DNA from: a virus
Lineage: Duplodnaviria > Caudoviricetes
Strand: one strand, 5' to 3'
IMG/VR virus record: IMGVR_UViG_3300025889_000070
DNA length: 64,000 nucleotides
In this document: positions 8,125 to 10,876 of the stretch, piece after piece
How the letters are laid out: each line of letters opens with the position of its first letter
Position numbering within the stretch: position 1 is the stretch's first letter
The notes under the pieces: model-generated
What the model saw: the letters and a program-made list of their open reading frames with translations, nothing else
Databases searched by the model: none
What the model was told of the DNA's origin: nothing
Made by a program: the position numbers and the translations under genes

Positions 8125-8635
8125 TAAACAGATTAAAAAAAGCATACACGATATTGTTTCACAAATGTATGCTGATAACTGGCGACCTGACTACATTGTA
8201 GGTATTACTCGTGGCGGTCTTGTCCCCGCTGTTCTTATGAGCCATCTAACAGGTATTAAGATGCATACCCTTGATGTTAGATTACGTGATGCCGCTGGCG
8301 AAAATGAATCCAACTACTGGATGGCAGAGGATGCTTTTGGCAACCATAGAACTGATGATCTACCAAGTTATAGCAATCCGCATCTTAGGAAAAATATTTT
8401 AATCTTGGATGATATCAATGATAGCGGAGCAACTCTTGAATGGATCAAAAACGATTGGCCCAGCGGATGCTTGCCAAATGATCCTGCTTGGAATGATGTT
8501 TGGCACAATAATGTTCGTTTCGCGACCATTGTAAATAATCTATCAAGTCCCTTTGAAGTTGATTATTCCTGTATCGAAATAAACAAAGCGGAAGAAGATG
8601 TTTGGGTAGTTTTTCCCTATGAGGAATGGTGGTAA
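8102..8635 (+). CDS. Type I phosphoribosyltransferase (purine PRT-like)
   Basis: VGITRGGLVPA, PRPP loop LILDDINDSGATL, and WVVFPYE C-terminus. Confidence 0.9.
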   Translation: MKKLYLSNKQIKKSIHDIVSQMYADNWRPDYIVGITRGGLVPAVLMSHLTGIKMHTLDVRLRDAAGENESNYWMAEDAFGNHRTDDLPSYSNPHLRKNILILDDINDSGATLEWIKNDWPSGCLPNDPAWNDVWHNNVRFATIVNNLSSPFEVDYSCIEINKAEEDVWVVFPYEEWW

Positions 8636-9204
8636 TGCTGTTTACAGAATACAAAAATTGGATATCTGATAAGGAACACATTGATATTTTAAGTAAAATT
8701 GTATACGCACCAAAGTGGCGTTTTGGCCAAGTAAGTGATGATCAAATTGAACCAAACTATCCAATGTGGTTCCAGGGATTTTATCACGTGCACAAACATG
8801 AATTTAAGGACGATTGTCCTGATATTGCTAAAACTTTAACGGAACGGTTTTTGGACCTAGCACCCGACAACTATATGTTGGTTAGAAGCATGGCTAGTAG
8901 TAATACGTTTGGTCAGGACGGAGACTTTCACACAGATTGGCCAGTATTTGGGCAAAGCATTACTGGTGTACTTTATACTGATAAAGTATGGGAAACAAAC
9001 TGGGGCGGTGAAACCTTGTTTAAAGGAGATCAGGTTTTAGAAGCAAGTGAGTATGAGCCTTGTAAACTTGTTACTTTTGATAGTAGCATTCCGCACATTG
9101 GTAAAGGTCCCCAACGTAGGTGCAAGGAAATGCGTAGCATACTAGCATTCCAAGCAGTGGAAGCCGATGCTCTCAGAGAAAGAATGAATAAAAAACTTGA
9201 CTAA
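8635..9204 (+). CDS. 2OG-Fe(II) oxygenase (prolyl-hydroxylase-like)
   Basis: HTD triad, WGGETLF, distal His (PHIG) and R-S (MRSIL); TAATG coupling to the PRTase. Confidence 0.85.
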   Translation: MLFTEYKNWISDKEHIDILSKIVYAPKWRFGQVSDDQIEPNYPMWFQGFYHVHKHEFKDDCPDIAKTLTERFLDLAPDNYMLVRSMASSNTFGQDGDFHTDWPVFGQSITGVLYTDKVWETNWGGETLFKGDQVLEASEYEPCKLVTFDSSIPHIGKGPQRRCKEMRSILAFQAVEADALRERMNKKLD

Positions 9205-9225
9205 ATAGAAAGTACTTGTTATTAT
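9197..9225 (+). promoter_or_regulatory. Sigma70-like promoter of the queD operon
   Basis: TTGACT (9197-9202), 17 nt, TGt-TATTAT (9220-9225); predicted start site near 9231-9232. Confidence 0.7.
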
Positions 9226-9231
9226 AATAAT

Positions 9232-9290
9232 AAGAGGACTTAGTGTTCGTTCCCTCTTTAAATATTCCGCGCACTCCATAACCAAGGAGT
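9232..9290 (+). ncRNA. Candidate cis-regulatory RNA, preQ1-I-like pseudoknot with an SD-sequestering hairpin
   Basis: P1 AAGAGG/CCUCUU; loop AGUGU can pair with downstream GCACU; competing ACUCC/GGAGU hairpin covers the SD; directly upstream of queD. Confidence 0.5.
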
Positions 9291-9297
9291 ATAAATT

Positions 9298-9777
9298 ATG
9301 GCAAAATATATTAGTACTAAAACATATAGACACTTAGGTCCAGTAGCATACAGGCAGTGGAGAGCAGACAGTCATTGTAATTTAATTCATGGATACGCAT
9401 TAAGTTTCCATTTTGAATTTGAATGCGACACACTGGATGCTAGAAACTGGTGCATGGACTTTGGTGGTTTGAAGCCACTAAAACAAAACCTAGAAGATTG
9501 GTTTGATCATACGCTATTAGTAGCACAAGACGATCCAGACCGAGAAACATTGTTAGATCTTGGTAAAAAAGGATTAGCAAAGATCACAGAAGTTGAAAAA
9601 ACTGGCTGCGAGGGTCTAGCAGACTTCCTTTATGAATACGTAAATACTATTTTCTTACCCAACTATGGCAAAGCAGAAGCAGAACGTATCTGGTGCTGTA
9701 AAGTTGAGGTAAGGGAAACCGACTCAAATATGGCTATGCGTGTCGGGCATAGAGAAGATGGAGAATTCGATGTTTAA
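9298..9777 (+). CDS. queD: 6-carboxy-5,6,7,8-tetrahydropterin synthase
   Basis: HCNLIHGY, DFGGLK, FDHTLLV, CEGLA and VEVRET motifs. Confidence 0.93.
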   Translation: MAKYISTKTYRHLGPVAYRQWRADSHCNLIHGYALSFHFEFECDTLDARNWCMDFGGLKPLKQNLEDWFDHTLLVAQDDPDRETLLDLGKKGLAKITEVEKTGCEGLADFLYEYVNTIFLPNYGKAEAERIWCCKVEVRETDSNMAMRVGHREDGEFDV

Positions 9778-9985
9778 AACTTTTTGGAACTTTATTTCTG
9801 GTTTAGGCAGTGTTGAAGACATTGTAAAGACAGCTACAGTAACAGAAGCAGAACTTAAAAAGATGACCAAAAAAGAAATTGATGACTGGGCTGCTAGTTC
9901 AGGCGTTACACTTGATCGTCGTCTTACAAAAGATAAGATGATTGCTGAACTTAAAACACACACATCTAAAGTTAACATTACATAA
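9770..9985 (+). CDS. Small protein with Rho-N/HeH-like helical motif
   Basis: LKKMTKKEIDDWAASSGVTLDRRLTKDKMIAEL; GGAG SD before the ATG at 9770. Confidence 0.6.
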   Translation: MFKTFWNFISGLGSVEDIVKTATVTEAELKKMTKKEIDDWAASSGVTLDRRLTKDKMIAELKTHTSKVNIT

Positions 9986-9994
9986 GAGGCATTA

Positions 9995-10876
9995 ATGAAA
10001 ATAAGATACACTGAAGCGTTTTATAGTGTACAAGGCGAAGGAAGGTTTGTTGGAGTTCCCAGCGTTTTCTTGCGTATGTACGGTTGTAATTTTACATGTC
10101 CAAAGTTTGGGCTAGCAAGGGATGCAGATACAAGTCAGACTGATAAAAAGTTAGCGGACATTGTTTACGAAACAACCAAGGTGTTTCCTGAAAAATATGA
10201 TAGTGTAGATAAACTCCCACTTATTGAAACAGGCTGTGACAGTTATGCCGCTTGGCATCCTGCTTTTAAACATCTACAGAATGACGTAGACTTGGACACA
10301 CTTGTAGATAGACTGCTAGCACTAACACCCACTGGATCATGGACACAGGAAAATGGTCAAGACATACACTTGGTTATCACAGGTGGTGAACCTTTGTTGG
10401 GTTGGCAGCGTGTGTATACAGAACTATTTGAACATCCAAAAATGAAGGATCTTAAAAATGTCACTTTTGAAACTAACACCACACAGCCTTTGCAGGACAA
10501 TTTCCAGTCTTACCTCAACAATAACCAACAACTACATGTTACATGGTCATGTTCCCCGAAGCTATCGGTTAGTGGACATGCTTGGGATGATGCTATACAG
10601 CCTAGTATTGCTAGGAGTTACAGTGACATTCGTGATAGCTACCTATATTTCAAGTTTGTTGTATGTGATGATGTTGATGTGGAAGAAGTTGACCGAGCTG
10701 TGGCGGAATTTAGAGCTGCCGGTATTACTGCGCCGGTTTATGTCATGGCTGTCGGAGGTACAACAACAAGTTACTTTGCTAACGGCAAAACTGTGGCGGA
10801 ACTTGCTCTTAAAAAAGGCTATTGTTATTCGCCCAGGCTTCATGTCGACGTTTTTGGCAATGCCTGGGGAACGTAA
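9995..10876 (+). CDS. queE: 7-carboxy-7-deazaguanine synthase (radical SAM)
   Basis: FYSVQGEG..G.PSVFLR..GCNFTC, ITGGEPLL, FETN, SCSPKL and PRLHVD. Confidence 0.93.
   Translation: MKIRYTEAFYSVQGEGRFVGVPSVFLRMYGCNFTCPKFGLARDADTSQTDKKLADIVYETTKVFPEKYDSVDKLPLIETGCDSYAAWHPAFKHLQNDVDLDTLVDRLLALTPTGSWTQENGQDIHLVITGGEPLLGWQRVYTELFEHPKMKDLKNVTFETNTTQPLQDNFQSYLNNNQQLHVTWSCSPKLSVSGHAWDDAIQPSIARSYSDIRDSYLYFKFVVCDDVDVEEVDRAVAEFRAAGITAPVYVMAVGGTTTSYFANGKTVAELALKKGYCYSPRLHVDVFGNAWGT

Follow-up and report, generated by a model that had tools for sequence, protein, structure and literature searches.

The 5′-end of the queD transcript in the analyzed window, a stretch of 64,000 nt of Caudoviricetes DNA, was found to contain a 43-nt H-type pseudoknot (positions 9233–9275), in which helix P2 crosses helix P1 (Table 1). 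The pseudoknot that the initial annotation had placed at this transcript end is therefore real, and it is conserved: the element precedes queD-like genes in more than 300 viral-contig loci, with at least about 210 distinct aptamer sequences. It appears to be a relative of the preQ1 riboswitch that is new and specific to phages. We regard it as fairly probable that a new class of riboswitch, specific to phages and controlling the translation of the queD-like gene, has this element as its aptamer. Full-text searches of the literature found no description of the element.

Table 1. Coordinates of the promoter, the pseudoknot, the competing hairpin and the downstream genes in the window.
Feature	Sequence	Position	Strand	Remarks
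Sigma-70-type promoter		9197..9225	+	Score 10/12 with extended −10
P1 5′ strand	AGAGG	9233..9237	+	Covariation; A9232-U9258 is an optional sixth pair
L1	A-C-U-U	9238..9241	+	C9239 and U9240 invariant in all three alignments (A1, A2, A3)
P2 5′ strand	AGUGU-U-CG	9242..9249	+	Upper helix 9242-46, mismatch U9247, lower pairs C9248 and G9249
L2	U-U-C	9250..9252	+	C9252, adjoining the P1 3′ strand, invariant
P1 3′ strand	CCUCU	9253..9257	+	Covariation
L3	UUAAAUAUUC	9258..9267	+	Family consensus N-W-A-H-A-H-A-Y-U-C; terminal UC invariant
P2 3′ strand	CG-C-GCACU	9268..9275	+	Final bases 9273-75 double as the beginning of the anti-SD strand
Alternative SD-sequestering hairpin (predicted)	ACUCC 9273-77/GGAGU 9286-90	9273..9290	+	Present in the MFE fold; SD AAGGAG at 9284-89
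queD-like gene, PTPS/T-fold family, 159 aa (regulated gene)		9298..9777	+	ATG at 9298; Pfam PTPS 6.6e-16; PHROG QueD-like 1.9e-40
QueE-like radical-SAM gene		9995..10876	+	PHROG QueE-like 1e-50

The stem AAGAGG (9232–9237)/CCUCUU (9253–9258) proposed in the initial annotation was recovered at exactly these coordinates. The second helix given there, AGUGU (9242–9246)/GCACU (9271–9275), is correct as far as it goes and incomplete: the comparative data extend P2 to 9242–9249/9268–9275, adding the pairs C9248-G9269 and G9249-C9268 across a conserved U9247·C9270 mismatch. The C just 5′ of the 3′ strand of P1, which had also been pointed out, is C9252 and is invariant in the family. The UAG of the loop, read at that time as a hallmark of preQ1-I, is coincidental; it is not conserved in the family and sits in the variable L1/P2 region. 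With an MFE of −12.4 kcal/mol and a z-score of −0.77, the folding energy of the leader is unexceptional, and it is the comparative evidence, not thermodynamics alone, that singles the leader out.

Covariation in the leaders of related phages had been suggested as a check on the structure; this analysis was run, and both P1 and P2 were found to covary. A covariance model built from homologous leaders produced a single match in the 64-kb window (9232–9277, 57.1 bits, E 1.7e-9). For the first covariation set, 36 leaders found via QueD homology, 99.1% of all cells were paired and 8 of 12 pairs had changed on both sides, whereas the observed covariation score was reached by none of 500 shuffles. 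P2 taken separately was paired in 98.8%, and 6 of its 7 pairs had changed on both sides. The second set consisted of the 88 distinct sequences among the matches listed for a search pattern in which neither the middle of P1 nor any part of upper P2 was constrained. Here, P1 was paired in 99.5% and P2 in 93.4%, with changes on both sides in 5 of the 7 P2 pairs. Sliding the columns by one to three as a control gave pairing in 31–64% (34–64% in the set of 36 leaders). The covariation counts are inflated by the relatedness of the sequences, but the slid controls argue against relatedness as the explanation.

P1 was identified in five complementary variants, namely AGAGG/CCUCU, AGUGG/CCACU, AGCGG/CCGCU, ACCGG/CCGGU and AUCGG/CCGAU. 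Its third position was C-G in 91, A-U in 79 and U-A in 37 of the distinct aptamers among the matches listed. The basal pair of P2 (9249-9268 in the window), at which the search pattern permitted a mismatch, was A-U in 127 and G-C in 80 of 207 distinct aptamers, and a mismatch was found in none of them. Across the family, the upper part of P2 comprises 3 to 6 pairs and the lower part two pairs, with the conserved U·C internal loop between them. About 16 loop and junction nucleotides are invariant across the family. The invariant positions include the C-U of L1, the C of L2 before the 3′ strand of P1, the A-Y-U-C end of L3 and the lower P2 pairs, all of which lie at the P1/P2 junction. L1 has the consensus N-C-U, in which N is A, U or C and the C-U is invariant; a variable spacer of up to about 8 nt comes next. 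The base 5′ of the invariant C in L2 was U in 120, A in 58 and C in 33 of 211 sequences. Positions 4 and 6 of L3 change together with the middle pair of P1 (mutual information of 0.89 and 0.78 bits, respectively) and are candidates for L3-P1 triples.

Upstream of the element, the −35 hexamer TTGACT (9197–9202) is followed by a spacer of 17 nt and the extended −10 motif TGnTATTAT (9217–9225). By promoter scoring, +1 was predicted at about 9231–9233, which is the foot of P1. The promoter and the start at the foot of the AAGAGG stem described in the initial annotation were thus reproduced at the same coordinates, with a score of 10/12 including the extended −10. Among the 94 distinct leaders of the UCCGC class, to which the window belongs, 48% have a promoter scoring at least 10/12 that ends 5 to 12 nt 5′ of P1, compared to 0% at a control position 200 nt upstream. 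Since the spacing between the promoter and P1 is correct, the transcript should begin at P1. The queD leader was also scanned for terminators and none was found; transcription attenuation was rejected on this ground.

In the comparison with the NCBIfam QueD model, the queD-like protein, which carries the motif HCNLIHGY, reached only 38 bits (cut-off 89). The QueE-like gene that follows is probably co-transcribed with queD in the phage of the window. A QueE-like gene was the next gene after queD in about 70 of 211 loci, and many relatives show no linkage between the two, which are 50–60 kb apart in complete jumbo phage genomes. The carrier phages encode FolE, QueE-like and DpdA-like proteins, the genes of which are often located 50–60 kb from the regulated queD. 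QueC was not found in the carrier phage genomes, so that synthesis of preQ0 or preQ1 is not expected and preQ1 is an unlikely ligand.

The position of the element in front of queD is highly consistent. In 115 of the 119 pattern matches listed, queD starts within about 100 nt, and in three more a small ORF lies between the motif and queD. For one match the sequence ends 99 nt downstream of the motif, and one other match precedes a 306-aa protein of the PTPS family. Where the downstream gene was readable, it always belonged to the PTPS/QueD family. Phage loci totalling about 1.6 Mb contained one match each, as did five phage records of 180–400 kb, and four complete phage genomes (190–400 kb) carry one copy each. 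No second copy was found before other pathway genes in the window, in the 1.6 Mb of loci or in the five large phage records. The element is abundant in IMG/VR, where all pattern counts are lower bounds.

A pattern scan of bacterial genomes (185,579 species) resulted in nine matches, of which five are real and all located 5′ of queD on MAG contigs. The other four were rejected as chance matches, as they have no P1, no P2 and no queD. All carriers are uncultured phage contigs and short MAG contigs. Among cultured phages, a DNA search with the region found no match, and BLAST with a leader of class B returned chance matches only (E = 8). The covariance model detected nothing near the queD of Acidovorax phage ACP17, Xanthomonas phage BUDD and Dinoroseobacter phage R26L. 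In these three phages, queD directly abuts the upstream ORF.

The hairpin ACUCC (9273–9277)/GGAGU (9286–9290) over the SD, contained in the MFE fold, was confirmed at the coordinates given in the initial annotation. Its competition with P2, which had been postulated there, is borne out by the overlap of the strands; the ON logic and a ligand other than preQ1, both put forward at the same time, are what we likewise infer. In the window, the anti-SD hairpin and the P2 duplex are isoenergetic (−5.5 kcal/mol each). When the strands of P2 were blocked in the folding calculation, the unpaired probability of the SD increased from about 0 to 0.83. Once P2 has formed, part of the AUG of the window might be masked by a weak CCAUAA/UUAUGG helix.

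At least three unrelated expression platforms were identified, consisting of an anti-SD helix ACUCC/GGAGU, an anti-start helix UGUCAUC/GAUGGCA and an anti-SD helix CCUAUG/CAUAGG. Two or more nucleotides of the P2 3′ strand were part of the alternative helix in 96% of 150 leaders, and in 92% of the 150 the pairing partner of this strand is the SD or the start-codon window. A median of 23 nt (range 15–94) separates the end of P2 from the downstream start codon, and the SD falls within this interval, outside P2. The platform helices covary only to a limited extent, as SD or coding sequence makes up their 3′ strands. As the partner of the P2 3′ strand in all three platforms is the SD or the start codon, formation of the pseudoknot should free the ribosome site, and the element would probably switch translation ON and not OFF. 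In an accessibility model of 190 leaders, the accessibility of the RBS rises modestly from 0.52 to 0.62 and falls in 7% of the leaders; this averaged effect is not taken to prove that the switch is of the ON type. It is uncommon for a biosynthetic gene to be under ON control, and we know of no preQ1 riboswitch that works in this way.

The element has the signature of a riboswitch, as a conserved and covarying aptamer is combined with variable platforms in cis before functionally related genes. The preQ1-I riboswitches (RF00522) comprise types I to III, with examples such as B. subtilis queC, T. tengcongensis, C. antarcticum and E. coli; their ligand binds at the P1/P2 junction, where a cytosine reads it by Watson–Crick pairing, and in the bound state the SD is occluded or a terminator is formed (OFF). 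In both cases, a small H-type pseudoknot is located at the 5′-end of an mRNA for a gene of the queuosine/7-deazaguanine pathway, and the conserved bases are gathered at the P1/P2 junction. P1 has 5 bp in both, and the variant AGAGG/CCUCU is identical to that of a Bacillus preQ1-I. L3 of the phage element is A-rich at its start and, by analogy, would be expected to run along the minor groove of P1. The specificity cytosine of preQ1-I is located directly 5′ of the P1 3′ strand, after U (type I) or A (types II and III), and the phage C9252 occupies this position, mostly after U or A (PMC11625349).

L1 is NCU with a variable spacer in the phage element, compared to UU(C) in preQ1-I (UUC in the Bacillus genome examples). 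P2 spans 7 to 8 positions with the conserved U·C internal loop, whereas preQ1-I has 3 to 4 bp. L3 is 10 nt long and ends with the invariant A-Y-U-C, while the A-rich L3 of preQ1-I comprises 6 to 8 nt. The SD of the phage leaders lies outside P2 and the P2 3′ strand is the anti-RBS strand, with ON predicted instead of OFF. In contrast to preQ1-I, the element is confined to uncultured phage contigs and short MAG contigs, and its carriers are without QueC.

Rfam 15, searched in gathering mode with the whole window, gave no match. The Rfam models of preQ1 classes I–III, which the initial annotation had listed as a further check, were absent at E ≤ 10 for leaders of three classes (window, B and C; RF00522, RF01054 and RF02680). 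The matches that appeared at this threshold were rejected as chance (snoRNA, miRNA, blv_FSE and freshwater-2, the latter with 17 bits at a cut-off of 50), and under no Rfam family name was there a match to the leaders. RF00522 also gave no match at the queD leader on the phage records of 180–400 kb, while it identified the true preQ1-I of a Bacillus control genome with 52.2 and 44.8 bits. In the reverse search, the phage model R1 scored true preQ1-I with at most 4.5 bits and left it undetected. The earlier view of the element as a variant preQ1-I aptamer is not sustained, as RF00522, L1, P2 and the end of L3 all place it outside that family.

Like the element, preQ1-II (RF01054) and preQ1-III (RF02680) are pseudoknotted, act at the level of translation and are associated with queuosine-related genes. 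They differ in their HLout topology with extra hairpins, whereas the element is a classical H-type pseudoknot, and in their ligand-bound form, which buries or docks the SD (OFF) in contrast to the predicted ON. In the add adenine riboswitch, a translational ON switch, the 3′ strand of the aptamer doubles as the anti-RBS strand and the ligand frees the ribosome site. This is the same strand-sharing logic, although add folds as a three-way junction and has no sequence kinship with the element.

According to the proposed mechanism, about 45 nt at the 5′-end of the mRNA would fold as the H-type pseudoknot, and its P2 3′ strand would double as the 5′ strand of an RBS-hiding helix, here ACUCC/GGAGU over the SD. 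A ligand stabilizing the pseudoknot would withdraw the shared strand, and the SD would be exposed for translation. Ligand binding, the ON direction and the identity of the ligand are conclusions that we infer. We consider a guanine-faced heterocycle of the pathway the most likely kind of ligand, with the exception of preQ1; candidates could be 7,8-dihydroneopterin triphosphate (the QueD substrate) or another pterin, CDG, 7-deazaguanine, guanine or GTP. We see about an even chance for the reading that an undescribed, phage-confined class, common in uncultured large phages, senses a non-preQ1 metabolite of 7-deazaguanine DNA modification and switches ON QueD as the committing enzyme. Under this reading, dihydroneopterin triphosphate (the FolE product), CDG, 7-deazaguanine or guanine released by DpdA may be sensed.

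The pseudoknot could instead be an operator, stabilized or disrupted by a phage or host protein such as the QueD-like enzyme or a translational regulator, which would set the translation of queD; the pseudoknot of the T4 gene 32 mRNA is an example of a protein-recognized operator. Conserved single-stranded bases next to structured helices would suit a protein site equally well, and the occurrence before one gene family, once per genome, is as in autoregulatory operators. We consider this unlikely, since the element is very small and its invariant bases are, as in preQ1-I, concentrated at a helical junction, the QueD-like proteins of the carriers share only 42–97% identity in very different gene neighborhoods, and no co-occurring candidate regulator was seen next to the element. 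Fixed folding without a ligand, or folding dependent on temperature or kinetics, might also make the leader a translational enhancer, a delay timer acting during transcription or a 5′ stabilizer of the mRNA. The location at the extreme 5′-end, the nearly isoenergetic helices and the modest change of the modelled accessibility are in agreement with such a device. It would, however, need neither about 16 invariant loop and junction nucleotides for simple stability or timing nor the coupling of the same aptamer to three different platforms, and appears quite improbable.

That the element is a divergent true preQ1-I, binding preQ1 or preQ0 and repressing queD by end-product feedback (OFF), is very improbable. 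The H-type fold, the 5-bp P1, the C at the specificity position after U or A and the queuosine-pathway context would fit this explanation. Against it, RF00522 misses the element while scoring the Bacillus preQ1-I at 52 and 45 bits, the phage model misses true preQ1-I (4.5 bits or less), the SD is not part of P2, the 3′ strand of which is the anti-RBS strand, and preQ0 or preQ1 is not expected in carriers without QueC.

To our knowledge, phage-native riboswitches are few and none governing DNA hypermodification is known. If the reading as a phage riboswitch is true, the element would be the first riboswitch devoted to the hypermodification of phage DNA, and also the first with a preQ1-I-like fold to act as an ON switch. 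As it is tiny and sharply defined by covariation, it should be an easy target for biochemistry and crystallography. If a ligand is bound, the element would constitute a new aptamer class that uses the preQ1-I scaffold but regulates in the opposite direction, and could serve as a compact ON switch for synthetic biology and as a metagenome marker for deazaguanine-modifying phages. It would also reveal the metabolite that phages monitor to time the synthesis of 7-deazaguanine.

The intergenic stretch at 9205-9297 is flanked by a 2OG-oxygenase-like ORF on one side and a PTPS/QueD-family ORF (queD) on the other. All elements described for this leader in the initial annotation, namely the stems P1 and P2, the hairpin covering the Shine-Dalgarno sequence (SD) and the ATG, were found at their coordinates. 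From the position of the promoter, the transcript start is predicted at about 9231-9233. The leader does not stand out by its folding energy (z = −0.77); a single sequence is therefore no proof, and the argument depends on comparison with other sequences. An 81-aa candidate ORF (9740-9985) begins within the 3′ part of queD and spans the interval up to the QueE-like gene; its PHROG matches are weak.

Features of the queD leader and neighboring genes, expression platforms of the leader classes, and copies of the element on MAG contigs
Feature	Position	Description
DpdA-like gene	2-835	upstream of queD
FolE	1905-2594	upstream of queD
2OG-oxygenase-like ORF	8626-9204	
Near-consensus promoter	TTGACT at 9197; end at 9225	TTGACT, 17-nt spacer, TGnTATTAT
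P1	9232-37 / 9253-58	AAGAGG with CCUCUU
P2 as first read	9242-46 / 9271-75	loop AGUGU with GCACU
Anti-SD hairpin	9273-77 / 9286-90	ACUCC with GGAGU
queD start codon	9298	ATG
PTPS/QueD-family ORF	9298-9777	Pfam PTPS 6.6e-16; PHROG QueD-like 1.9e-40
QueE-like gene	9995-10876	3′ of queD
Class A platform (window)		anti-SD ACUCC/GGAGU
Class B platform		UGUCAUC with G-AUG-GCA over start codon
Class C platform		CCUAUG/CAUAGG over SD
MAG-contig copies		L203, L207, L209, L210 and L211; bins Bacteroidota (Crocinitomicaceae, Chitinophagales, Haliscomenobacter, 'Bacteroidetes') and Nitrospira

The QueD-like protein of the window has 409 relatives in IMG/VR, and about 60 of the best 80 of these 409 loci carry the same motif immediately 5′ of queD. 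In a MAFFT alignment of 36 distinct leaders including that of the window, P1 and an extended P2 were paired in 99.1% of the cells, compared to 34-64% in controls for which the structure was shifted along the alignment by 1-3 columns. Covariation of P1 and P2 among homologous leaders, which the initial annotation had proposed as a check, is present: both-sided changes were identified at 8 of 12 pairs, and the observed covariation was reached by 0 of 500 shuffles. The five upper pairs of P2 had been recognized correctly, but the helix extends further, with the two lower pairs C9248-G9269 and G9249-C9268 and a conserved U.C mismatch (9247.9270).

A covariance model of homologous leaders (R1) was built with P2 as sole structure. 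In addition, IMG/VR was scanned with two patterns that specified just the conserved loop nucleotides and G-G/C-C at the top of P1 and left the middle of P1 and the entire upper P2 free, each resulting in at least about 120 matches. For the 88 distinct sequences among the matches listed, P1 was 99.5% and P2 93.4% paired, compared to 31-52% for slid controls. All sets pooled comprise at least 207-211 distinct aptamers. In 207 of these, the pair at the foot of P2 is A-U (127) or G-C (80) and never A.C or G.U, and the middle pair of P1 is C-G (91), A-U (79) or U-A (37). Variants of P1 are AGAGG/CCUCU, AGUGG/CCACU, AGCGG/CCGCU, ACCGG/CCGGU and AUCGG/CCGAU. Aptamers off the simple P2 register retain a GC-rich upper helix beyond an internal loop that is slightly larger. 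Judged from this sequence comparison, the pseudoknot is real.

Positions 4 and 6 of L3 (9258-9267) covary family-wide with the middle P1 pair (9235/9255). Where this pair is A-U or U-A, position 4 is an A in 118 of 118 cases and position 6 mostly U or C; with a C-G pair, 90 of 93 sequences have C or U at position 4 and all 93 have A at position 6. This may be due to minor-groove base triples or merely to lineage.

For 115 of the 119 new-locus pattern matches listed, queD was found within about 100 nt of the motif. A small ORF lies in between in 3 more, as in two loci of the first set (L013 and L019), and in one match the contig end cuts off the downstream sequence. The last match (L196:2658-3650) precedes a 306-aa PTPS-family protein, apparently two-domain, and is the one motif copy without an ordinary queD match downstream. 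The inserted ORFs (58-88 aa, longer elsewhere; L013:2823-2999, L019:2735-3001, also L144, L164 and L177) take over the AUG-GCA start of the leader, and therefore the putative switch would control a two-gene unit in such phages. The neighbors of queD in many relatives are sugar-nucleotide epimerase/dehydratase and DAHP/KDO8P-synthase-family genes (L020:1914-2960, L072:4176-5108, L038:3443-4285) and not queE.

In phage loci totaling about 1.6 Mb, R1 detected exactly one match at each locus, and it likewise detected exactly one in each of five phage records of 180-400 kb, four of which are 98-100% complete according to CheckV. FolE and a QueE-like gene are present in all five and a DpdA-like gene in four, while no credible QueC was found in them, just short PP-loop matches (17-26 bits). 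The element is absent from the cultured phages of the collection searched, and full-text literature searches yielded no description of it. A pattern scan of 185,579 prokaryote species genomes revealed five real copies, all 5′ of queD; four further matches were rejected as chance. Four of the copies are located on short MAG contigs (three Bacteroidota bins, one Nitrospira bin) and the fifth on a contig of 183 kb from a Haliscomenobacter bin. All five are probably phage DNA, perhaps from mis-binned phage genomes, and the bins may hint at the phage host range.

The aptamer is followed by one of at least three expression platforms that are unrelated to each other (classes A, B and C), with pairing-preserving variants such as UGCCAUC/GAUGGCA and UGUCAUC/GAUGACA in class B. 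In all three classes, the helix that sequesters the ribosome site shares 2-4 nt of its 5′ strand with the P2 3′ strand. Of 150 leaders in which P2 is regular, 96% have 2 nt or more of this P2 strand within the alternative fold, and in 92% these nucleotides pair with the SD or start-codon window. Since the strand is common to both helices, the pseudoknot and the helix masking the ribosome binding site (RBS) are mutually exclusive, and whatever stabilizes the pseudoknot should therefore turn translation on. For the leader of the window, −5.5 kcal/mol was calculated both for the P2 duplex and for the anti-SD hairpin, and the unpaired probability of the SD rises from about 0 to 0.83 once the P2 strands are engaged. 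The ON direction is put forward as a prediction, since the averaged change in RBS accessibility in a model of 190 leaders is modest (0.52 to 0.62), the AUG of the window might be partly covered by a weak CCAUAA/UUAUGG helix when the pseudoknot is formed, and coding and SD constraints leave little room for covariation in the platform helices.

Roughly half of the leaders of class A have a strong promoter that ends 5-12 nt 5′ of P1 (control position 0%), so that the mRNA of those phages begins with the aptamer. Some two thirds of the leaders of all classes have the aptamer within 25 nt of the end of an upstream ORF, and some leaders therefore fit both descriptions. In leaders that lack a promoter, this proximity points to co-transcription with control at the level of translation.

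The invariant bases (C-U of L1, the C of L2 before the P1 3′ strand, the A-Y-U-C end of L3, the two lower pairs of P2 and the U.C loop) come together where P1 and P2 join in an H-type pseudoknot. At this junction, preQ1-I riboswitches bind their ligand, which sits between the top P1 pair and the first P2 pair and is read by the C before the P1 3′ strand (PMC11625349). Real Bacillus examples of preQ1-I have UUC after P1, a P2 of 3-4 bp and a poly-A L3, whereas the phage element has NCU, a P2 of 7-8 positions interrupted by an internal loop, and an L3 of 10 nt whose last two bases are UC. Beyond chance matches, no Rfam 15 family, the preQ1 classes suggested initially included, matched the three leader classes at E ≤ 10. 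The preQ1-I model RF00522 recovered two true preQ1-I in a Bacillus genome as control (52.2 and 44.8 bits); when run on three phage records and on the genome from the Haliscomenobacter bin, it gave weak matches (12-22 bits) that were never on the queD leader, and R1 scored true preQ1-I loci at 4.5 bits at most. The element is preQ1-I-like in fold and in its probable pocket position, yet it departs from preQ1-I in several membership features. Of the initial reading, the architecture and the probable ON switch are retained and preQ1-I membership is not.

A divergent preQ1-I of the OFF type would share this fold; the predicted wiring of the phage element is opposite to that of every known preQ1 switch, and we consider this explanation very improbable. 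The stabilizing factor could also be a protein, the element then being a protein-binding operator, which is considered unlikely. A ligand-free folding device would be compatible with two balanced helices and is given a slightly lower probability in view of the invariant bases. A new phage-specific riboswitch class is favored here and considered moderately probable. The observation of the pseudoknot is confirmed and extended, and its interpretation is partly supported.

The conserved C of L2 suggests a guanine-like Watson-Crick face on the putative ligand. Since the carrier genomes lack QueC, preQ0 or preQ1 would not be expected as a self-made product, and with an ON switch a substrate or signal is a better fit than an end product. 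Candidate ligands include dihydroneopterin triphosphate, which FolE produces and QueD uses as substrate, as well as CDG or 7-deazaguanine, guanine set free by DpdA, and GTP. The QueD-like protein of the window scores 38 bits against the QueD equivalog of NCBIfam (cut-off 89) and its active-site stretch reads S-H-C-N-L-I-H-G-Y (motif HCNLIHGY), while the canonical QueD motif is C-x3-H-G-H. The enzyme is thus atypical and may catalyze something other than plain synthesis of CPH4.

In three of the five large phage records (G004, G006 and G007; complete, 350-400 kb, behind the loci L072, L111 and L119), queD and its leader are located 50-60 kb from the folE, QueE-like and DpdA-like genes, and the element is found at queD alone. 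It would therefore regulate queD specifically and not a pathway operon.
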